A DNA stretch of 25,728 bases from an uncultured virus (IMG/VR IMGVR_UViG_3300029305_005254). Taxonomy: Duplodnaviria; Heunggongvirae; Uroviricota; Caudoviricetes. The stretch is from IMG/VR virus record IMGVR_UViG_3300029305_005254; one strand, written 5' to 3'. Under the pieces are notes generated by a model. The model made no database searches and was not told the DNA's origin. It was given only the letters and a program-made list of their open reading frames with translations. Positions 6,008 to 25,728 of the stretch are shown piece by piece; the first letter of the stretch is position 1, and each line of letters starts with the position of its first letter. The translations under genes were made by a program, and so were the position numbers.

Positions 6008-7201
6008 TTAATTAATTTCTCCGTACCTATCCCACAATAAGTCATCTCCATTATTATACATATCTTTGTATAAAAATCTGTCAAACTCTACCTCAAATTG
6101 GCACAATAACCAATATATAGCATCAATCTGACTCATCTCCACATAATCAGTATTTCCATCAACTGTTATCTTCTTTGTAACATTTCCTGACTTATCTATT
6201 TTATCTAAAAACATACTCTCTTCTACTGAGAAATAATTTCTTATACCCATTGATGTTAAAGAAACATTCTTTTGATAAGACCTTACCTTAAAGTCTAATA
6301 AATCACTAAAGTACATACGCTTATCTTCAGGGATATCATAATAATCATCTACAATTTCTTCTTTTGTTTTATATAAAGGAAATACTGTCATATGTATATC
6401 ATCTTTATCAACACCATCTAATCTTACAAGAGTAGCACTTACTATTCTTCCTATAGGATTAGCTTCACACATACCCTTTCTTTCCCATAAGATATACATT
6501 CCACCCTCTAACATTCCTTCCTTTTCCATAAAACCTATCTTCTCAGACCAAGACCAAAGCTTGTTTCTACCCCCTGCTATTCCGTTGTTACAGAATATAG
6601 AATAGTCTAAATCAACAGAATACTCAGAAAAGTTTATCTCTAACTGTACATAATCATTAAACCACTCTAAAGATTTAGAGCAAGATAAAAGATTTATGTA
6701 TAGGTAAGTAGATGCTACTTTCTGCCTGTCGGATATAATTATCTTTAAAGGTTTATCTTTTAAGACACCTATACTTCTTGATACTATATAATACCCTACT
6801 AAATGCATAATTGTATTACCCATTTCGTAATTCTTTGTGAACTCTGTAGGGTAAGGAGTACAAGAGTTATAAATTAAATCAAAATCCCATTCATAATTTA
6901 CATCTGCCTCCCTGAATATGCAACCTTCCATTTCTTTCAAACAATCTGTGTTTAAATATACCTTAGGTACATCTAAATCCTCTTCAACAGTAAAACCTTC
7001 AATCTTAATAGCACCTATATGTATTAAATACCTAAAATAACTTAGCATATCCGGTGGAGTTATATCTTTCTCTATAGACATAGTAGTCATATCAAGAGAA
7101 TCTCCTCTTCTGTAACACTCCCTCGCTATTACTAGTGCAAGATATAATTCAGAATAAGACTCAAAATGCCTTCTTTTGAAAATATTTTCACAAATCAACA
7201 T
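6008..7201 (-). CDS. hypothetical protein
   Basis: 397-aa ORF, GGAGG RBS, starts 1 nt after the upstream gene's stop; no recognised motif. Confidence 0.8.
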   Translation of the reverse strand: MLICENIFKRRHFESYSELYLALVIARECYRRGDSLDMTTMSIEKDITPPDMLSYFRYLIHIGAIKIEGFTVEEDLDVPKVYLNTDCLKEMEGCIFREADVNYEWDFDLIYNSCTPYPTEFTKNYEMGNTIMHLVGYYIVSRSIGVLKDKPLKIIISDRQKVASTYLYINLLSCSKSLEWFNDYVQLEINFSEYSVDLDYSIFCNNGIAGGRNKLWSWSEKIGFMEKEGMLEGGMYILWERKGMCEANPIGRIVSATLVRLDGVDKDDIHMTVFPLYKTKEEIVDDYYDIPEDKRMYFSDLLDFKVRSYQKNVSLTSMGIRNYFSVEESMFLDKIDKSGNVTKKITVDGNTDYVEMSQIDAIYWLLCQFEVEFDRFLYKDMYNNGDDLLWDRYGEIN

Positions 7202-7202
7202 A

Positions 7203-7832
7203 TTATTCTACCCCTCCTTCTATGTAACTAATAATATTATATAAATCGCTATTAAAAGGTCTTTCACCTTCTACACTACTAATTAAATAACCCAACTTAT
7301 CTTTGTTAAGTTTATTTAACTCCTCACTAATAGCTTTGAAATTATACCTAGCAAGAAAACCTATCTCCCTCTTGCAATCCTGTATGCTAAAAGAAACATT
7401 ATCTGAAACACTTTCACCATAATCCCTTACCATCATTAAAACATCTAATGGTAAAAGCTTTGATAAATAATCCCCCTTGCATAAAATGGTAGCTAACTTC
7501 ATTCTTCTTTGCAATTCTTGTTTATTGTCCTTAAAATTTACGAACAATTCAAAGAAATCATCTCCAAACATACCATATAATATGTTAGATAAATTTCTTT
7601 TATGAGTTCGAATAGTTCCTTCCTCAACAGATAATTTCATTGCAATAGAGAGGTCATTGTAACCTTCTAAACATAAGTCTACAAGTTCCTTAGCATACTT
7701 ATAATTAGTGTAATTACAATCTGTTAAAAAAGATTTTAATTGTAACCAAAACTCGCCCATCTCACGATTTCTTTCTTTAGCTACAACCCCTTTTAAATCT
7801 CTCATTTCTTTGTAAAAATTTTTCTTATACAT
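7203..7832 (-). CDS. putative DNA-binding protein with LuxR/sigma-region-4-like HTH
   Basis: Segment LCLEGYNDLSIAMKLSVEEGTIRTHKRNL resembles the LuxR-type HTH pattern (GxxxxxIAxxLxxxxxTV/IxxHxxN); GAGGTGA RBS. Confidence 0.62.
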   Translation of the reverse strand: MYKKNFYKEMRDLKGVVAKERNREMGEFWLQLKSFLTDCNYTNYKYAKELVDLCLEGYNDLSIAMKLSVEEGTIRTHKRNLSNILYGMFGDDFFELFVNFKDNKQELQRRMKLATILCKGDYLSKLLPLDVLMMVRDYGESVSDNVSFSIQDCKREIGFLARYNFKAISEELNKLNKDKLGYLISSVEGERPFNSDLYNIISYIEGGVE

Positions 7833-8051
7833 TACTGATACTCACCTCGTTTTTATAATTCTATTTTCTCCTAAAACAATTCTAAAATTTAATTATCTTA
7901 TTTATACTAAAAACTTAATATAAATTTTAACATATTTAAATATTTTTTACAATATCTCTTAAACCTATTTAACATAAAAGAGATAAGTAATATTATTTAT
8001 ATAATCTTAAAAGATAAAAAATCTACAACATCTTTAAACATACTAAAAATT

Positions 8052-8226
8052 TTAAACATTTAAATTAAACATTTATAAATCCAACACTACTCCCACAACC
8101 CCACAAAATTCTTAAAACCCACGAAAATACAACAAAAATCAGCCTAAAATTCGTTGAAATACAAAATGTATAAAAAATTTAAACATTTATTTTAAACATT
8201 TATAAATATAAAATTTTAAACATTTA
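8052..8226. repeat. five direct repeats of TTAAACATTTA in an AT-rich intergenic region (iteron/operator-like)
   Basis: Exact copies at 8052, 8065, 8179, 8192, 8216; partial copy at 8034. Confidence 0.7.
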
Positions 8227-8587
8227 TTGGTTTTAATTAGATATATTAAACCTTCTATAAAATAAAAACCATTCTAAATTTTATTAGAGAGAAAATACTT
8301 GTTTAAGATAGATATTTTGTAAAAAACAATTTAATTTATAAATCCTAACTTAAAATTTAACCAACAACATTATCATTTAAATTGTTACTTTTACAACTAA
8401 AATATTCTCGGTGAATATATCTCAATTTATATTAAAACTTAAATTTAAATAGCATCTTATACTACAAACTCTTGCTAATTAAATATAAAATACATTTCTA
8501 ATTTCTAAAAGGCTAAATTGTATTTCTAATGAAAACACACTTAAATTTAATTAATTTCATTATAATTCTAAATTTATACATATAATT

Positions 8588-8621
8588 AAAGGCAGAACAT
8601 TTCTTAGTTCTGCCTTCTTTT
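8588..8621 (-). terminator. intrinsic terminator-like hairpin
   Basis: AAGGCAGAAC (8589-8598) / GTTCTGCCTT (8607-8616) just after the stop of 8627..9025. Confidence 0.7.
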
Positions 8622-8626
8622 ACCCC

Positions 8627-9025
8627 CTAAGCACTAGCACCCATTAAAAATAAGGTTTCTCTCATATTATCAAACAATTCTTCTTTTTCTTCACCCTCAA
8701 CTATAGCATCTAATACAGAAAACAAAAGTTTTCTTCTCTTAGATTTACTTAACTTATTCTTATAACCTACAAAAAGTATTGTTTTGTTATCTTCGTTGCA
8801 AACATCTTTAGGTAACTTATTTGCATTCGACTCATTCGTTACATAAAATTGCCAAGTATCAGCTAATATAACACCTGTACTATTTGAATCTAAAACAGAA
8901 TCAACATTCTTATCCTTTCTATAGATTACAGTAGCTTCTTCCTTAGTGTGTAAATATTCAGCAACCTCTTCAACACTTAAATCGTTGCTACAAATTATTA
9001 TACCCTTGTTGTAAGTTCTTAACAT
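8627..9025 (-). CDS. hypothetical protein
   Basis: 132-aa ORF with GGAGGAG RBS. Confidence 0.75.
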   Translation of the reverse strand: MLRTYNKGIIICSNDLSVEEVAEYLHTKEEATVIYRKDKNVDSVLDSNSTGVILADTWQFYVTNESNANKLPKDVCNEDNKTILFVGYKNKLSKSKRRKLLFSVLDAIVEGEEKEELFDNMRETLFLMGASA

Positions 9026-9229
9026 AAAGCATCTCCTCCCAAATATTATAAAAATAATAGTCTTAAGTTTTTAACTAATTATTACACTGCATATAAATGT
9101 AGTACAACATCCATATCTTTGTAATACCTAACTTAAAACAATTTTATACTATTTTAAGCAAAATTACAACTCAAATGAAGAAATAAAACTGAATACTCCA
9201 AGACTAACCCACACCTTTATTTTTGATTT

Positions 9230-9286
9230 AAAATAAAATAAAAATTTCCCTTTTAAGATAAAACTTTATAATCTTAAAAGGGAAAT
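9230..9286 (-). terminator. intrinsic terminator-like hairpin (16-bp perfect stem)
   Basis: ATTTCCCTTTTAAGAT (9244-9259) / ATCTTAAAAGGGAAAT (9271-9286), followed by a T-rich tract on the minus strand. Confidence 0.65.
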
Positions 9287-9322
9287 ACCACTTATACTAT
9301 ATAATACTATGTTAATCCTATA

Positions 9323-9958
9323 CTATATACTATTAACATACTCGCTTTTGCATTCTTCTGATAAAACTTGTTTTGTAACAAACATAAGTTTTCTTAAGTA
9401 ACTATCTATCTTCAACTTATTCCATCTATAATACTCTCTTGAATTACCTTTTATATTTCTTAAAAGCATCATTGAATAATAGCACCTTGATATATCAGGA
9501 TATAATAACATATCATTACAACAAAATACACCTCTTATACCCCTTATTGCTTCTGTAGTAAATGAACACTGAACACTTGTTGTAACTTTGTTAGCTGCTT
9601 CTAATACAAACCTACTATCGTCACTTTCTTCTAGAGCATAATCTGAGTATCTATCATAATCTGATAAGACACACTTGGTTCTGTCTACATCAATGTACAT
9701 AGCGACATATCCTTTATTTAAATAGTTTTTCACCATACTCTCGTCTGGATTAGCTACCCAACCCCATAGACAACCTTCTCCATATGACATATAAGGATTC
9801 TTCTTCTTAAGTCTGTTTATTATTATGCTATATGCCTTAGTAAATCTTACTGAAGAATAAGCAAAAGGTGATTTGCTTAAATCTACTGTATATTCTCCTT
9901 TTAATATTTTTGATACTACTTCCCTTTTCTGAAATGTTAATATAAGCATATTTTTCAC
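9323..9958 (-). CDS. hypothetical protein, possibly DUF3841-like
   Basis: 211-aa ORF, GTG start with AAAGGA RBS; LWGW and VLSDYDRY resemble DUF3841 motifs as recalled (not verified). Confidence 0.65.
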   Translation of the reverse strand: MKNMLILTFQKREVVSKILKGEYTVDLSKSPFAYSSVRFTKAYSIIINRLKKKNPYMSYGEGCLWGWVANPDESMVKNYLNKGYVAMYIDVDRTKCVLSDYDRYSDYALEESDDSRFVLEAANKVTTSVQCSFTTEAIRGIRGVFCCNDMLLYPDISRCYYSMMLLRNIKGNSREYYRWNKLKIDSYLRKLMFVTKQVLSEECKSEYVNSI

Positions 9959-11672: not shown

Positions 11673-14600
11673 TTAGAATAAATCTTTTAAACCTTTTACA
11701 AAAGATTTAGCTCCATGAACTACTGTCCTACCAACTTTTACACCCACTCCTGCAGTACCTGTAATTGCTGTGCCTGCTAATCCTGCTGTTACTCCTAAAG
11801 CTTTTACTGCTTTGTTGCAATTCTTTTTATTCCACATATTTTTAGTAAATGACCAAGTAGCACCTGTACCTTTAAAACAATGTTTTTCTACTGAGGCTGC
11901 TAAACTATTAGCTCTTCTAGTCATTTCTAATTCTCTTTCTATGGCTTTAACTTCCTCTTTTGTACAGTCCTTATCACCTATTTTTAAACTAGTTAAGTTT
12001 CTTAACACACTAAATAATTCCTCAACAGAATTAATATTTAAGGCTGGTGCAATATAATTTATAAAAGTGTCCTTAGAATCTATATTTAATATACGAAGAT
12101 TTGGCATAGATTTTAAACACTCATAATGGAAAAGACTAGATACATTACCTGCATTTACCTCTCTCCTTATATCATAAGGTATTGATGTTCTACAAGCATC
12201 ACTAATCTGACATCTATAAAAACTATTATTTACTGCGATACTACCACCTTTTACAGTAAATGAATTAAACCTTTCTAACCCACCAAACTCATTTATAATA
12301 CTATTAGTAAAAATATCCATTAATTTACCTAATGTAATTTCCTCGTTATACCCAAATGGTACTCCTATAAAGCTACTTTCAGAAATAACAGTTCTATTTT
12401 CATTAGGGTTAATAGCTTCTTGCATTGAAAGAGAGTTTATATTTACACCCAATTGTTCTAATCTGGATACTAAATTTTGTATTTCTTGTATATTGGCTTG
12501 ATATTGAGAATCATTTAAACTATCATAATTAGTTGCATTAAAACTACTCTCGTTTAAATCATCACTAAAAAGGTCAAACTCTAACTCTTCATCCAATATA
12601 TTAGATAGTCTGTTATCTGCATCTGAAAATGCAGAGTCTTCATTAGAGAAATCTTCATTAGACTCACTAACAAGATTTAAGAAAGACTTTTCCTCTTCTG
12701 AAACCTCTTCTGTACTGTTAAGTACCTTGTAATCTGATAAATTAAGCCTAACATCACTTACATCATACATAAACTTATATAAATCTCGCTCATATCCCAA
12801 AGATTCTATAGAGTCTAAAGCCATACCCCATGAACGACATAGAGGTTCTTTGATGTTACCCCCTAATAATTTGTTTACATAAGCTGGAAAACCTATCTCT
12901 GGTACTACATCACCCTCTACACCATTTCTGTATACTTTATTATAAGCTAATGGGTTAGTACTTACACACCTCGCTGCAGATGCTGTAGAGCTATCATTAA
13001 GTAGCAAGAAAGGTCTAAAAACAGGTGAAGATGAAGAGATCTCGCCACTCTCAGCCATAGCAAAGTACCTATAACTATCAAATAAACTTTTATTTGTCTC
13101 AGAAAAACTATATGCTTCAGCCATACCTACAGCTCCTGATGCATCAGCACCTTTACCTGCAAACTTAACAGTATTAGAATCTGAAACTAACTTATATAGT
13201 ACTGACATAAAATAATACTTATTGTCTTTACTTCTTATAGCATCTAAACTAGCTTTTTTTAACCAATCTGGTTGCCATATAAATAACAACTTGGAATTGG
13301 ATAATCTTAACTCTGCTGTCTTAGCTGTTACTATCTTATCCATAACACCAATAGCATATGATACAAAATCTCTAGCATACTTTATAGACTCATCTGTATT
13401 TACAGTACCCTTTGTTTCTTGGCTTGATTTTAATAACTTAGTTCTATCTGCGATAAAACCACCATCACCATTATCACCCTTGAATGCAACTGTTAACAAT
13501 TGAACCTGCTCTGCCAATCTACCAATCTCATCAAAGATAAATAGTATGTAATCATCAGGTGCTACACCCTGTTCTTTCCTCATTATACTAATGAAATATG
13601 CTAAGTGTATATTTCTTAAGTAACAATAAGTTTTTACAAACAATTTCTCATAACCCTTCTCTTGTAAAAACTCTAATATTGGAGTAGGTAACTTAGCATA
13701 CATATATTGATATATGTCGAACCTTGATTCCACCTGACTTAAAGTACCACTTGCATCACCATCGAAAGCTAAAACATTCTCTCCTTCAGCAACATCCCAT
13801 AATACACTTGCCATATCTGGTTTACAATCTGCATACATAACTGGAATGTTTGATGCTAGGGCAGATGCTAAAAGATTAAGAGTCATAACACCTTTACCAC
13901 TACCACTACCTGCCATTATATTATAGATAGTTTTTTGTTGTGCTCCAAATTTACCAAAAACCAATTCATCTTTAGTATTCTTACCTATAAGAATGTTATC
14001 CCAAGAAAGTTTAATACCTTGTTCTTGTAGAATAGGTAATGCTTCATATGCAAACAATGGAGAGTTGTAATAAGACTCTGCATCTATTACAAAATTGATA
14101 TAAAATACATCGTTAAGCTTACCACCTGGATTATTGGCACTTGGACTCTCTACCGATGTTTTAGTTTTAAAAAGAAAACCTTCATTTATTACACTCTGGA
14201 ATGCGTTAATATTTAACGCTCTAGACTCATTAGGGTGTACAGAACTATCCAAGCATATTCTCATCTTTAAAACTACTCCTGGAATGTAGTCATCCACAAG
14301 GATACAAGTTTTTATACTAGCTATGTACTCTAATACTAAACTAGATACAAAACTTCTATCATTCTTTTGCTCTTCTGGTAAAGCTTTAATTAACTTATAT
14401 AAAGTATTTTTTGTTCTATCTTTTATGTAAGTCTCGAATTCTTTATAGCTTGTAGATTTAGTGTCTCTGTTACCAAAATACCCATACATATTTGCTAAAT
14501 GGTATTTTATGAACATAGGTATTCCTGCATACTCCTCTATTTCTGTTGGAGATACCATACTATTAAACCTAGCTGTGCAATCAATCTTCCCCAAACAAGA

Positions 14601-15284
14601 CTCAATTGTACTATAAACCATTGACAGCTCTGAAATAGAATCTTCATCTAAACTTTTAAGTTTAGATATATTTCCACTTAAAGTATAAATACCTTCTGGT
14701 GTAAGTATTCCTTTCGGTCTACTATTCTTGTAACATACCTCATATAAAGATTTATAGCTATCTAATAATTCATCCACCTTATTGTTTATAAATGATAAGT
14801 ATTTATTAGTAGCTACATCTGACTTCTCTACCTCACCAACATCATCTGTATCTCTAGGAGTAATACTCTCTTCTTCAGTCTTTTCTTTTTCTTTAATATC
14901 TTCTTTTTCTTTAATATCTTCTTTTTCAGCTTTTTCTTTATGACTATCTTGTATTATATTTAAACCTATACCATTTCTCTGTCTTAACTCCTCTAATGAG
15001 ACCATTCTAGCTGGTTTACCGAAGGCTTTAGCAACTAACAATGCACCATTAAGAGAAACTAAAGCCTCTCCATAAGACTCATCTATCATACTTGTTAATA
15101 TGGATATAGTATTATCTAATATAATTTCTGATAATTCAGAATTAGATCCATTTAATCTGATACTGCTTATACAAGATATACCTAAATCAGCACATTCACT
15201 ATAACAACCTTCAGCTACAGCTATACTTTCAAATACTTTCTCACAATTTAAGTTAAAACCTTTTATAATTTTTGAATAAGACAT
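11673..15284 (-). CDS. large P-loop ATPase of the FtsK/HerA/VirB4-like superfamily
   Basis: Walker A IMAGSGSGKG, followed by MYADCKPD, Walker B LFIFDE; acidic linker; Gly/Ala/Thr-rich amphipathic C-terminus. Confidence 0.7.
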   Translation of the reverse strand: MSYSKIIKGFNLNCEKVFESIAVAEGCYSECADLGISCISSIRLNGSNSELSEIILDNTISILTSMIDESYGEALVSLNGALLVAKAFGKPARMVSLEELRQRNGIGLNIIQDSHKEKAEKEDIKEKEDIKEKEKTEEESITPRDTDDVGEVEKSDVATNKYLSFINNKVDELLDSYKSLYEVCYKNSRPKGILTPEGIYTLSGNISKLKSLDEDSISELSMVYSTIESCLGKIDCTARFNSMVSPTEIEEYAGIPMFIKYHLANMYGYFGNRDTKSTSYKEFETYIKDRTKNTLYKLIKALPEEQKNDRSFVSSLVLEYIASIKTCILVDDYIPGVVLKMRICLDSSVHPNESRALNINAFQSVINEGFLFKTKTSVESPSANNPGGKLNDVFYINFVIDAESYYNSPLFAYEALPILQEQGIKLSWDNILIGKNTKDELVFGKFGAQQKTIYNIMAGSGSGKGVMTLNLLASALASNIPVMYADCKPDMASVLWDVAEGENVLAFDGDASGTLSQVESRFDIYQYMYAKLPTPILEFLQEKGYEKLFVKTYCYLRNIHLAYFISIMRKEQGVAPDDYILFIFDEIGRLAEQVQLLTVAFKGDNGDGGFIADRTKLLKSSQETKGTVNTDESIKYARDFVSYAIGVMDKIVTAKTAELRLSNSKLLFIWQPDWLKKASLDAIRSKDNKYYFMSVLYKLVSDSNTVKFAGKGADASGAVGMAEAYSFSETNKSLFDSYRYFAMAESGEISSSSPVFRPFLLLNDSSTASAARCVSTNPLAYNKVYRNGVEGDVVPEIGFPAYVNKLLGGNIKEPLCRSWGMALDSIESLGYERDLYKFMYDVSDVRLNLSDYKVLNSTEEVSEEEKSFLNLVSESNEDFSNEDSAFSDADNRLSNILDEELEFDLFSDDLNESSFNATNYDSLNDSQYQANIQEIQNLVSRLEQLGVNINSLSMQEAINPNENRTVISESSFIGVPFGYNEEITLGKLMDIFTNSIINEFGGLERFNSFTVKGGSIAVNNSFYRCQISDACRTSIPYDIRREVNAGNVSSLFHYECLKSMPNLRILNIDSKDTFINYIAPALNINSVEELFSVLRNLTSLKIGDKDCTKEEVKAIERELEMTRRANSLAASVEKHCFKGTGATWSFTKNMWNKKNCNKAVKALGVTAGLAGTAITGTAGVGVKVGRTVVHGAKSFVKGLKDLF
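14884..14919. repeat. in-frame 18-bp tandem duplication (EKEDIK x2)
   Basis: TCTTTTTCTTTAATATCT twice, inside the ATPase gene. Confidence 0.7.
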
Positions 15285-22700: not shown

Positions 22701-23023
22701 ACACCTTGTATTTAATGCACTAATGTGCTTAATACCTTGGGTCAGGGTATCCACCACATAAAGTAAATGAATACCCCCTAAGGAGTCCATCAAATGCCGA
22801 TGGCTGAATAAATAGGCGTTACCTTAGCCTTATGTATATAATCACCAATAAGGTGTTAATACCTCAGGTGGCTTTTACACCACCCTTTAAGGATTGTTCT
22901 TACGAACAGATGTTATATAGCAATAGAGATATTCTCTAAAACTAACAAGGGGTGGTGGGTGAGTTGCTTACACCAATTAGGTCTCACCCACCTTATTTCA
23001 TAGTAATTACTTACTATACTATA

Positions 23024-23052
23024 AGTATAACATACTTATAAAACTATAACAA
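23024..23052 (-). promoter_or_regulatory. sigma-A-like promoter TTGTTA-17-TATACT with extended TG
   Basis: -35 at 23052-23047, -10 at 23029-23024, about 375 nt upstream of the SSB start. Confidence 0.55.
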
Positions 23053-23071
23053 CTCAATCTTAGTTTTCCAA

Positions 23072-23097
23072 GGCAACCTTCATGGCTAAAGGTTGCC
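23072..23097. other. stem-loop, possible terminator of the upstream operon
   Basis: GGCAACCTT / AAGGTTGCC inverted repeat; weak U-tract. Confidence 0.45.
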
Positions 23098-23191
23098 CTT
23101 TAGGGAAGCTATATAGAAATACCCTTTACAAACTTATATAGAAACTTCGGAGGTAACTTATAATATTAAGGGTATTACTAACAAAAATTAT

Positions 23192-23455
23192 CTACCAAAT
23201 CTCTATTTCTTCTGTCTCAAGACTAGATAATCTCTTTATCTCCTTCTCTTCCTTAGCATACATCACTGAATATCTTACCCATTGTAATATATTTACTATA
23301 GGAATAAAAGCAGATACACAAATATCATAATATTTTCTTCTAATACTGAATAGTACCAATAAGCTTATTGCTACATATAATCCACATATTATTAAACAAG
23401 ATAATACCATTCCTAACTGCCAATTATCTTGCCAATATAACATAAAACTACTCAT
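23192..23455 (-). CDS. small membrane protein
   Basis: 87 aa, hydrophobic segments (LGMVLSCLIICGLYVAISLLVLFSI; ICVSAFIPIVNIL). Confidence 0.72.
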   Translation of the reverse strand: MSSFMLYWQDNWQLGMVLSCLIICGLYVAISLLVLFSIRRKYYDICVSAFIPIVNILQWVRYSVMYAKEEKEIKRLSSLETEEIEIW

Positions 23456-23457
23456 CT

Positions 23458-24039
23458 CTAAACACCTCTGTTACCAATGTTTTTGGCACTTTCTATGCTT
23501 TTTAAATAATCTACATACATTTGTAAATTATTAACATTCCAATCTAATGGAAGAATCTTGTCTCCATCACAAACAGTAGCTGCATCACCTGCACAAGCAT
23601 TTGTTGCATTTAACTGATTGTTAGTTAACACAAGTATATCATCTTCTCCTGTATTAACTACAAACCCTGATTCCAACTTTACCATATCATTAATATCCCA
23701 ATAGATATCTCCCACTGCTACTGGAAAACTCTCTAATGAATAATTGATAAGGTTATCTGCTTGTAATAAAATTTCTCTTTCATTTTCAAAAGGCTTTGCA
23801 CCTTTACTATAATAAATGTTATCGTCATCAAAGCTGATGTCCATATCCAAATGCTTCCAATTACCTCTCTCATCACTTGCTAAAAAGAGTATATTGGCTA
23901 CATCTTCATCTACTAATCTTAATCTGCATCTAAACAGTGCGTACTGAGTTGTAGAATCTTGTAAGGCTTTAGATAGATTTCTAAAAGCATCGTTAAACTT
24001 CTTGATAACACCTTCTTTTAAAATTGAAATATCTCCCAT
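23458..24039 (-). CDS. hypothetical protein
   Basis: 193-aa ORF with AGGAGG RBS. Confidence 0.78.
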   Translation of the reverse strand: MGDISILKEGVIKKFNDAFRNLSKALQDSTTQYALFRCRLRLVDEDVANILFLASDERGNWKHLDMDISFDDDNIYYSKGAKPFENEREILLQADNLINYSLESFPVAVGDIYWDINDMVKLESGFVVNTGEDDILVLTNNQLNATNACAGDAATVCDGDKILPLDWNVNNLQMYVDYLKSIESAKNIGNRGV

Positions 24040-24053
24040 ACTTTTTCCTCCTG

Positions 24054-24386
24054 TTAAATAGAGCCTAAATAGTGAAATCTTATAAGTTTAAGGAAACAAA
24101 AAGATATTACACCTATACAAGCTAATATAATTAATCTTATAATTGGCTTCTTAACATTCTGGCATACACATTTATCTGCATAAAAACCTAATATTAAACC
24201 TATTAGGAAATAGTCTTTTATAGGTAGTATAACAGTTGTTAAAAATGCAACCAAGAAAAGCTTCCAATCACCAATCATAATATAATATATAAATGTCCCA
24301 AAAAACGCTCCAAGACTATAATTAAATACTTCTCCTTCTTCCTCTACTACTTCTAATTCTTTTTTGGATTTAGTATCTTTTTTCAT
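24054..24386 (-). CDS. small multi-pass membrane protein
   Basis: 110 aa with 3-4 hydrophobic stretches; ATGA overlap with the primase stop. Confidence 0.72.
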   Translation of the reverse strand: MKKDTKSKKELEVVEEEGEVFNYSLGAFFGTFIYYIMIGDWKLFLVAFLTTVILPIKDYFLIGLILGFYADKCVCQNVKKPIIRLIILACIGVISFCFLKLIRFHYLGSI

Positions 24387-25144
24387 ATTCTTCTAGTAAC
24401 CACCCTTCTATCATCTTTAAAAATACTTAATAACATCTCTTTTACATCCTCGGCTTCATACCCGTTGCATAGAGTGTCAATATCTTTACTGTTATCTCCT
24501 GTCCACCTAAAGTACTTACTATTGCTAGGCAACATCCAAGAATCTTTAGATATAACCCCTCTACCTTCAAAATCATTATCTGGTATTCCAACCAATTGAG
24601 AAAATAATGAATATAATACTGATTTATACCTTGAGGATGTTATCCCCATTTGAGCAACACAAGGTATTCCTAAAGACCTTACTGAAAGACAATCAAAAAT
24701 ACCTTCAACTAGTATGTATTTCTTTCCTATACCTGTTTTAGACAACTGTTCCATTCCATAGAATAAACAAGCCTTGCTAAACATTTTACTAGGGGTTGTT
24801 ACATATTTCTTTTCATCTGGAAACCAACCTATTAAGGCTACCGTATTTCCTAACATATCTCTTACTGGAAATATAAATCTCCCATCTAATAAGAAGTTAC
24901 CTTTATCTGAAAATAAAGCTAAATCAGAACCTGCTGACTTTAATTTACTAAAATCACAGTCCCCTTCTTTTATATACATAAAACCTGCTTGTTTAAGAAT
25001 ATCTACCATTCTTTCTGGATAATACCCTCTTAGGGTACATATTTCTCTAGCAACTAAATCAGCTGGTGCACTATGTAATTTTAAATAGTTTTCTACCTTT
25101 GCAAACCTTTTGCAATAGTCTTTATATTCCTGTTCATTTAACAT
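24383..25144 (-). CDS. DnaG-like primase catalytic core (Toprim)
   Basis: RFIFPVRDMLGNTVALIG, KYVTTP, LFYG, LVEGIFD, DNDFEG and KDID match DnaG RNA-polymerase/Toprim motifs. Confidence 0.85.
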   Translation of the reverse strand: MLNEQEYKDYCKRFAKVENYLKLHSAPADLVAREICTLRGYYPERMVDILKQAGFMYIKEGDCDFSKLKSAGSDLALFSDKGNFLLDGRFIFPVRDMLGNTVALIGWFPDEKKYVTTPSKMFSKACLFYGMEQLSKTGIGKKYILVEGIFDCLSVRSLGIPCVAQMGITSSRYKSVLYSLFSQLVGIPDNDFEGRGVISKDSWMLPSNSKYFRWTGDNSKDIDTLCNGYEAEDVKEMLLSIFKDDRRVVTRRI

Positions 25145-25175
25145 AAAAACCTCTTTATTATTTCACTCTATTTAA

Positions 25176-25602
25176 TGATACATTAACTCTTAGTGAATTA
25201 CTTCTTTACACTGATACATTCATCTAATTATGCGAAATACTCTCCTCTATTGATGATGCATTTCTTCCATCTGAAAACTTAATTTTTTGTGATACACTAC
25301 GGCATATTGATATACTCGGCATTTAAGGTACACTAAATCTTCGAGAATTACTTTTATGACCTGATACATTCTGCTTTTCTGATATATTAATTTGATACAC
25401 TCTGTATTATTGAAATACTCACTGATATCGATACACTGCAATCATTTGAAATACTTACCACCTATGGTACACTTGTATTATTTGACATACTATCTTTTTT
25501 TTTCGATACACTTAACACAAATGAAATACTTTTATCCGATGGTACATTCTCTTTCTATGATATAATAATTCTGACCAATACACTTGTTTTCCTTGAAATA
25601 TA
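25176..25602 (-). ncRNA. TIGR-like dual-repeat guide-RNA array (about 12 units of 36 nt)
   Basis: 24 nine-nt repeats alternating TGATACACT-type and TGAAATACT-type (plus strand), starting at 25176, 25194, 25212, 25233, 25254, 25272, 25290, 25308, 25326, 25344, 25362, 25380, 25393, 25411, 25429, 25447, 25465, 25483, 25504, 25522, 25540, 25558, 25576, 25594; spacers variable, mostly 9 nt; strand inferred from flanking genes. Confidence 0.85.
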
Positions 25603-25619
25603 TTTTTTTTTTATTTTAA

Positions 25620-25653
25620 TGTAGTGTTGCTAGAAATTTCTAGCAACATTACA
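25620..25653. other. 34-bp near-perfect palindrome between the putative tas gene and the array
   Basis: TGTAGTGTTGCTAGAAA|TTTCTAGCAACATTACA, one mismatch; overlaps the stop codon at 25630-25632. Confidence 0.75.
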
Positions 25654-25728
25654 CTGATACTGGTTGTATTTATGAGGTTTTTGACCTAGCTTAGCAACCT
25701 CATAAGGTTCGTCAACCTCTAAACCTTC
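25630..25728 (-). CDS. 3' end of a putative Nop-domain TIGR-associated (Tas) protein (5' part outside the window)
   Basis: Hand translation EGLEVDEPYEVAKLGQKPHKYNQYQCNVARNF*; EGL.V..PY..AKLG..H resembles phage Nop-domain Tas C-termini as recalled; directly upstream of the array. Confidence 0.62.
   Translation of the reverse strand, partial: EGLEVDEPYEVAKLGQKPHKYNQYQCNVARNF

Follow-up and report, generated by a model that had tools for sequence, protein, structure and literature searches.

The last few hundred nucleotides (nt) of a 25,728-nt stretch from an uncultured virus (IMG/VR record IMGVR_UViG_3300029305_005254; the whole stretch is called the window below) very probably contain a dual-repeat TIGR array together with the gene for its TasA effector, carried by what is probably a large phage of the animal gut. 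This assignment is directly supported by the anatomy of the array, by the homology and fold similarity of the gene product to TasR and TasH, by the lack of a nuclease domain and by the recurrence of array and gene on the same strand at related loci. The locus belongs to the known TIGR-Tas kind. As described in PMC12045711, dual-repeat TIGR arrays consist of two alternating repeats of 8-12 nt and spacers of about 9 nt (at most 12 nt), forming units of about 36 nt, usually 5-15 per array. They are transcribed and cut in the edge repeat to 36-nt tigRNAs, which are kept on a Tas dimer, and the two spacers of a tigRNA pair with opposite strands of a site of about 18 bp without any protospacer-adjacent motif (PAM; PMC12045711).

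An earlier inspection of the letters alone, referred to as the sequence-only reading, had described 24 nine-nt repeats in strict alternation on the minus strand. Positions 4 and 6 of the repeats bear this out. From the first repeat at 25602-25594 to the last at 25184-25176, odd repeats resemble AGTATTTCA (type 1) and even repeats AGTGTATCA (type 2) with strict alternation. Position 4 is A in 11 of the 12 type-1 repeats, with T in the remaining one, and G in all 12 type-2 repeats, whereas position 6 is A in 12/12 type-2 repeats. Consecutive repeats start 18 nt apart in 19 of the 23 intervals, 21 nt apart in three and 13 nt apart in one, and spacer lengths are accordingly 9 nt (19 cases), 12 nt (three) and 4 nt (one), in agreement with the 18-nt period and 36-nt unit deduced previously from 19 spacers of exactly 9 nt. 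The spacers, described as unique, are indeed mutually distinct (24 in the list). Type-2 repeats delimit 11 units, which are preceded by a partial one. Five of the 24 repeats match their own consensus exactly, ten have one mismatch, eight have two and one has three.

The three-repeat pattern AGTGTAYCR-N9-AGTATTTCA-N9-AGTGTAYCR matched twice in the window and in none of 100 dinucleotide-preserving shuffles. When the window was scanned for the nine-mer at one mismatch or less, 17 of the 45 minus-strand matches fell within 25184-25566, and no second cluster of the motif was present elsewhere in the window. Tandem Repeats Finder did not report the array, which is to be expected with units only half conserved. 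An Rfam scan of the array gave no match at E ≤ 1, and no open reading frame (ORF) of substance runs across it.

Both repeat types start with AGT and end with TCA but differ in their middles; in 3 of the 24 the 3' end is CCA instead of TCA. In the tigRNA of TasR, both repeats begin (5') with box D and end (3') with box C, and the edge and loop repeats covary (PMC12045711). The shared AGT...TCA ends with differing middles appear to be the same edge/loop covariation as that published for box D and box C. According to the same source, TaTasR tigRNA1 is laid out as AGCCA, spacer A, UGAAACCCA, spacer B and UGCG, and the TaTasR edge repeat is therefore UGCG|AGCCA. In the window, type 2 is probably the edge repeat and type 1 the loop repeat, although the array's own ends leave the choice undecided. 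This preference is based on the related locus L001 presented below, where both sub-arrays start and end with truncated type-2 copies, on the extra U3-A6 pair possible in type 2, the edge repeats of TaTasR and of the related locus L004 having C3-G6, and on the greater variability of the type-1 middle. The first repeat of the array is degenerate at its 5' side. At the other end, a possible AGTG remnant lies 8 nt past the last full repeat, directly before the ribosome-binding site of the primase gene that follows. It is out of phase and no loop repeat precedes it, and it is uncertain as an edge repeat.

Upstream of the array, the sequence-only reading had placed a tas gene ending at a distance of 28 nt. 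The gene indeed adjoins the array, but from its stop codon to the first repeat we count 27 nt. Scanning metagenomes for the three-repeat pattern brought up only L001, which covers 15.5 kb of a 212-kb contig and has no blastn similarity to the window. It encodes P0002, a 421-residue ORF at 8168-9433, whose C-terminus shares 57% identity with the fragment encoded in the window (E 4e-9). With P0002 as query, 412 proteins of the collection matched at E ≤ 1e-3, the largest of their contigs measuring 474 kb, and the best 120 of these 412 were examined. The C-terminus of one 402-residue protein, P0105, is identical to the 32 residues encoded in the window (31/31 plus the final F), the next best family member reaching 26/31, and P0105 bears the '-' source flag that the database gives to the window's own proteins. 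We take P0105 to be the full-length product of the truncated window ORF.

The family alignment A1, made of 41 sequences, has 63 invariant columns. Run against all PDB sequences, its profile gave two distinct matches at E ≤ 1, namely TasR (9mty_A, 1.2e-12) and TasH (21kl_A, 4e-8), the latter accompanied by seven further PDB entries. The AlphaFold2 model of P0105 (predicted local distance difference test, pLDDT, 88.3; predicted template-modelling score, pTM, 0.80) begins with a coiled coil. Only TasH and TasR chains occupy its top ten Foldseek places (E 1.8e-6 to 1.8e-4), ahead of the IS621 recombinase and archaeal Nop56/58. VIA-align over 48,161 chains gave Z 18.8 for TasR (root-mean-square deviation, rmsd, 2.7; 197 residues aligned) and 18.2 for TasH (rmsd 3.2; 214 aligned), compared with 12.8 for the IS110-family ISCro4 and at most 10.0 for generic coiled-coil noise. 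Model residues 7-397 align with TasR 111-322 and TasH 66-303, segments that follow the nuclease domain in each of these proteins. With Pfam, no HNH or RuvC family was found in any of the 41 family members. The Pfam Nop model PF01798 did not match either, the only hit being a sub-threshold one to Transposase_20 (PF02371) in 27 of the 41, and the PHROGs label of the protein is 'transposase' (phrog_4285, E 4.4e-33).

These data sustain the earlier identification of the upstream gene as tas, by way of the identity with P0105, the PDB profile matches and the fold matches. The lack of a Nop fold in this ORF had been named beforehand as an outcome that would speak against the identification; the fold is present in the P0105 model, with TasR and TasH as its best matches. 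Judging from the family alignment and the model, the protein is a TasA, a solo Nop-domain Tas protein without nuclease, since neither of the domains proposed to tell the Tas classes apart, RuvC and HNH, was found, which sets it outside the TasR and TasH subclasses.

The alignment also covers the processing loop. In SpTasH, a C-terminal loop carries Y289 and H296, which cut the pre-tigRNA (PMC13421893). The window fragment has a PYEVAKLG..PH loop which aligns with this Y289 loop, and Y289 itself aligns with Y379 of P0105, invariant in the family. An invariant H389 lies ten residues past Y379 and three past the variable position aligned to H296. Both Y379 and H389 are encoded in the window fragment.

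Within the Nop core, P0105 has a beta-rich insertion of about 115 residues (178-296) with 14 predicted strands, which is partly deleted in the shorter members P0111, P0117 and P0119 (360-374 residues). An ESM Atlas search with residues 176-298 gave 0.81-0.83 at best, to unnamed viral clusters and below a meaningful level. In the whole-model Foldseek search, matches possibly lying on the insertion (pilins, beta-trefoil, choline-binding repeats) had probabilities of at most 0.16; whole-model VIA-align barely tests this part of the protein.

By tblastn with P0105, Ralstonia phage phiRSL1 was the only GenBank phage in the collection to match, in two records (AB366653.2/NC_010811.2, 13249-14172; 35% identity over 78% of the query). 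One record annotates the gene as 'hypothetical protein', the other as 'transposase'. It is probably a Tas gene that has gone unrecognised in this jumbo phage.

The association of array and gene was found again elsewhere. When IMG/VR was scanned with a profile, eight more distant homologues (31-50% identity) turned up. A lag of 36 nt was the top periodicity beside the tas homologue in eight of nine loci (L001-L007 and L009), and no such periodicity was seen beside the homologue in L008. All arrays that were read out at related loci lie on the strand of the tas gene. In L001, two arrays on the plus strand (about 6920-7565 and 7858-8081) directly precede P0002, with AGTGTATCA alternating with AGTWWTTCA. 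These sub-arrays end in truncated type-2 repeats (AGTGTAAGT, before a ribosome-binding site, and AGTGCCAAT), and truncated type-2 copies are found at their starts, too. The L001 Tas protein is 59% identical, yet its locus uses the same repeat pair as the window. In L004, AGACAACCA and AGCGAGCCA alternate with 9-nt spacers, and the AGACAACCA/AGCGAGCCA arrays of the relatives keep the same phase and strand. The repeats of the relatives have AG...CCA ends in common.

Some further observations concern these related loci. Between the two L001 sub-arrays upstream of tasA lies a small ORF (7584-7850; 88 residues from ATG 7584), which has no Pfam or PHROG match. Its ribosome-binding site comes directly after the truncated last edge repeat, parallel to the junction of array and primase gene in the window. 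The same AGACAACCA/AGCGAGCCA array is present in four IMG/VR contigs, L004 (4872-5691), L005 and L006 (4872-5727) and L007 (1424-2279), whose flanks are nearly the same (96.7-99.8% identity for L004 against L005). L004 is without exactly one 36-nt unit, with the spacers GAAAACGGG and CACATCGTT, which is present in the other three, and a unit with TTGGGTGAG and CTGAGCATG occurs twice in all four. Gain, loss and duplication at the level of whole units thus occur in a related TIGR array.

Among characterised systems, FpTIGR-TasA of Flavonifractor plautii (Faure et al., Science 2025, PMC12045711) is the most similar, being likewise a solo Nop effector without nuclease next to a dual-repeat array, and FpTasA is visibly the closest characterised relative on comparison of the sequences. 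FpTasA binds 36-nt RNAs (PMC12045711). Compared by eye with the entry in Table S1 of that paper, the two proteins have nearly the same motifs YDxQKLRIxxGNR, KGCGxLMSAVC (helix-hairpin-helix) and LEGLEVxEPYEVAKLGxKPH. FpTasA ends in ...LEGLEVTEPYEVAKLGHKPHHSS (C-terminal motif LEGLEVTEPYEVAKLGHKPH), and the first 19 residues of the window fragment agree with it at 17 positions, again by eye. As printed there, however, it has about 290 residues as compared to 402 in P0105, and the insertion site holds about 35 residues in FpTasA and about 8 in TaTasR. TaTasR (9MTY) and SpTasH (9W03, 9W04, 21KL) share the coiled coil and Nop fold as well as repeats and spacers of 9 nt, but cut DNA with an N-terminal RuvC or HNH domain, neither of which the protein described here has. 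More distant fold relatives are Nop5 and Nop56/58 of box C/D small nucleolar ribonucleoproteins (Foldseek probability 0.92-0.98 for 3nmu, 3nvi and 3pla) and the bridge-RNA recombinases of the IS110/IS621 type (probability 0.95 for IS621, 8wt9; ISCro4 with the VIA Z given above). In contrast to these, no DEDD/RuvC recombinase domain and no fibrillarin or L7Ae partners are present here, and guides are supplied by a tandem array in place of single RNAs. A CRISPR locus resembles the window in its repeats and unique spacers beside an effector gene, and in a precursor presumably cut into unit guides. It has, however, a single repeat of 25-36 nt, while here two 9-nt repeats alternate, the spacers are split into 9+9 nt and no cas genes are present. 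CRISPR-Cas was thus rejected on account of the two kinds of 9-nt repeat and of the lack of cas-like matches in the neighbouring genes.

By analogy with the published family, we propose the following scheme. The minus strand would be transcribed, either as part of a tasA transcript or from a promoter located within the 27 nt between gene and array. A TasA dimer would bind the precursor through the AG...UCA ends of both repeats, acting as boxes D and C, and the precursor would be cut inside the edge repeat, probably as AGUG|UAUCA, by the Tyr/His loop encoded in the window fragment. The expected products are 36-nt tigRNAs of the form UAUCA-spacerA-AGUAUUUCA-spacerB-AGUG. Guide-directed binding and bending would then most likely block transcription or replication of a target, which could be a gene of the host, of a rival element or of a phage, without cleaving it. 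Binding and blocking are proposed rather than cleavage because TasA is without a nuclease. MbTasA has been described as a reversible RNA-guided transcriptional repressor (preprint 10.64898/2026.09.09.750476).

Several points weigh against this interpretation. Repression was shown for MbTasA, which is different from the clade discussed here, and the beta-rich insertion could alter the activity of the protein. Only 32 codons of the gene lie inside the window, so that the link to P0105 consists of the C-terminal identity and the database flag. In the processing loop, H296 of SpTasH aligns with a variable N/Q/H position (Q386 in P0105). The box motifs are AG...UCA here as opposed to UG...CCA in TasR. 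A 5'-truncated edge repeat, expected at the start of the array, is not evident, and no terminator-like site was found on the minus strand in 24900-25728, whereas published arrays typically end in one. The array is degenerate in places, with two or more mismatches in 9 of the 24 repeats, one 4-nt and three 12-nt spacers, and some of its units may therefore be dead. Composite targets were searched for in the remaining 25,149 bases of the window, with both unit phases, the geometries A + reverse complement of B and reverse complement of B + A, and gaps of 0-2. The best matches reached 14-15 of 18 positions, 15/18 at most, while the maxima of 30 shuffles went up to 16 with a mean of 15.2. Finally, 0 of the 7 sequencing runs that carry the stretch are RNA.

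The same imperfections could be those of a decaying relic, in which processing of the array into functional guides has ceased despite the homology of tasA and array to TIGR-Tas. In view of only five exact repeats, nine with at least two mismatches, the irregular spacers, no targets in the window scan, no terminator and no clear truncated starting edge repeat, we give this explanation a small chance. TIGR arrays, however, generally lack strong sequence conservation and have spacers of up to 12 nt (PMC12045711), and the discriminating repeat positions are kept in 23 of the 24 repeats. The strong conservation of the protein family, seen in the invariant columns of its alignment, and the identity of the array in contigs of four runs, where covered, are not expected of a relic either.

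Since the region is AT-rich and its repeated nine-mers stand directly upstream of a primase gene and a replication/recombination module, they might also be iterons of a replication origin, that is, DNA bound by a protein. We regard this as very improbable, as it would leave unexplained why two repeat types alternate strictly with unique 9-nt spacers, why the array is co-oriented with a Tas homologue in eight of nine other loci without a neighbouring primase, and why the repeat ends match box D and box C of published tigRNAs. A mere chance periodicity of AT-rich intergenic DNA, or an array of promoter-like sites on the plus strand, seven of which a consensus scan indeed places in the array, has a negligible probability. 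The promoter-like matches follow mechanically from the repeat sequence, and the same architecture stands beside homologous genes elsewhere. Together with the three-repeat pattern, absent from all shuffles, the recurrence in L001 effectively refutes this possibility.

Going beyond a TIGR array with its TasA, one could imagine that the locus represents a distinct clade of insertion-bearing TasA proteins of about 400 residues, common on contigs that reach 474 kb and probably belong to huge gut phages, with arrays placed in the 5' leaders of phage genes and with an activity added by the inserted domain. We consider this proposal unlikely as a whole. If Tas cut the last edge repeat, the 5' end of the downstream mRNA would be fixed by that same cut and guide production coupled to the expression of replication genes (the leader genes being the primase here and the small ORF in L001), and the inserted domain could bring an activity beyond that of the published dual-repeat Tas proteins, which a preprint describes as compact with minimal variation. 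Whether the repeat consensus defines a distinct subtype, as the sequence-only reading suggested, has a mixed answer. The AG...UCA repeats do differ from the UG...CCA of TasR, but L001 has the same repeats, and the catalogue was searched only in part.

TIGR-Tas systems have been in print since 2025, with a published catalogue of 20,096 tas loci and 6,685 arrays, and TasA is the commonest Tas effector in published work. As compact, PAM-free, RNA-guided binders or cutters of DNA, they currently attract interest for genome engineering. Within the part of Table S1 of PMC12045711 that was covered, four motifs specific to the clade of about 400 residues and KLMGVLTGC occur in 0 rows, PYEVAKLG in 92 and GNRLVQSFY in 4, a count which does not allow absence from the catalogue to be claimed. 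We found no paper that joins 'TIGR-Tas' and 'jumbo phage'. The locus adds an AT-rich example with repeats ending in UCA, compared to CCA in TasR, points to a large TasA family (the 412 matches mentioned above) with an extra beta domain, and indicates that TIGR arrays can stand directly before phage replication genes. It also shows that a reading of the sequence alone recognised a TIGR array that standard repeat finders overlooked.

The features of the window that bear on the locus are collected in Table 1.

Table 1. Position of the array, its flanking elements and selected spacers in the window.
Feature	Position	Strand	Remarks
Dual-repeat TIGR array	25176..25602	minus	24 nine-nt repeats, 23 intervening spacers
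tasA, 3' end	25630..25728	minus	last 32 codons and TAG stop (25632-25630); gene runs past the window end
Palindrome/RNA hairpin, near-perfect	25620..25653	minus	17+17 nt; straddles the tasA stop, directly upstream of the array
Candidate 3'-truncated final edge repeat	25159..25167	minus	AGTG (25167-25164), then unrelated bases
Gene for DnaG/Toprim-type primase	24383..25144	minus	downstream neighbour of the array, same strand
Overlapping spacer sites	25483-25491/25474-25482, 25411-25419/25402-25410; also 25317-25325, 25299-25307

The palindrome at the tasA stop is 94% complementary in an inverted-repeat search and folds as RNA with -20.1 kcal/mol (z -6.15), none of 200 shuffles being equally stable. 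On the minus strand it is followed by a run of A and not of T, and it is therefore not a canonical terminator; it could serve as an operator, a processing site or a stabiliser. A weak promoter-like site on the minus strand overlaps this hairpin. On the other side, the ribosome-binding site AAAGAGG and the ATG of the primase gene come straight after the array with no terminator between. The primase was recognised through Pfam Toprim_2 (E 7e-6, above cutoff), DNAG_N (E 3e-4) and PHROG DNA primase families, and the array does stand, as noted before, directly upstream of the primase and the replication cluster. All window genes are on the minus strand and include, besides the primase, SbcCD-like proteins, a UvrD-type helicase and a RecJ-like exonuclease.

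There are no structural genes among the window genes, and the status of the source as a phage, probably a large one of the animal gut, is only probable for this reason. The stretch is present in seven sequencing runs, whose labels are feces metagenome or bovine gut metagenome; gut and feces runs in the collection are animal-derived. In contigs of four runs the array is identical where covered, except for one T inserted at 25494 in the contig X4, and so are the flanks; these contigs represent one strain and are uninformative on spacer turnover. A blastn search of 23000-25728 against phages gave no match, and in the viral contig set an exact window 31-mer, the three-repeat pattern and the primase protein each had 0 matches.

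Some minor observations on the window may be added. An ORF of 1203 residues (11673-15284, minus) contains a P-loop-like GSGSGKG motif and has no Pfam match at E ≤ 0.01 and no PHROG match at E ≤ 1e-5; several further large ORFs of the replication module are likewise without Pfam or PHROG assignment. The exact 12-mer GTATCAGTGTAA (minus), which consists of the 3' part of a type-2 repeat and the first 6 nt of its spacer, occurs at 25206-25217 in the array and again at 25649-25660 inside the last tasA codons, where it may be due to chance or be the vestige of an array unit inside the coding region. Two spacers, AATAATACA and ATAATACAG, have 8 nt in common with a shift of one base, and the neighbouring spacers TAAATGCCG and ATATGCCGT have ATGCCG in common. 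Such overlaps could reflect the tiling of one target or duplication with drift. The seven sigma-70-like sites on the plus strand lie at 25287-25473 and pair TTGAAA or TTGATA, at 16-18 nt, with TACACT or TATACT, because the reverse complements of the repeats recur every 18 nt. Antisense transcription across the array is conceivable.

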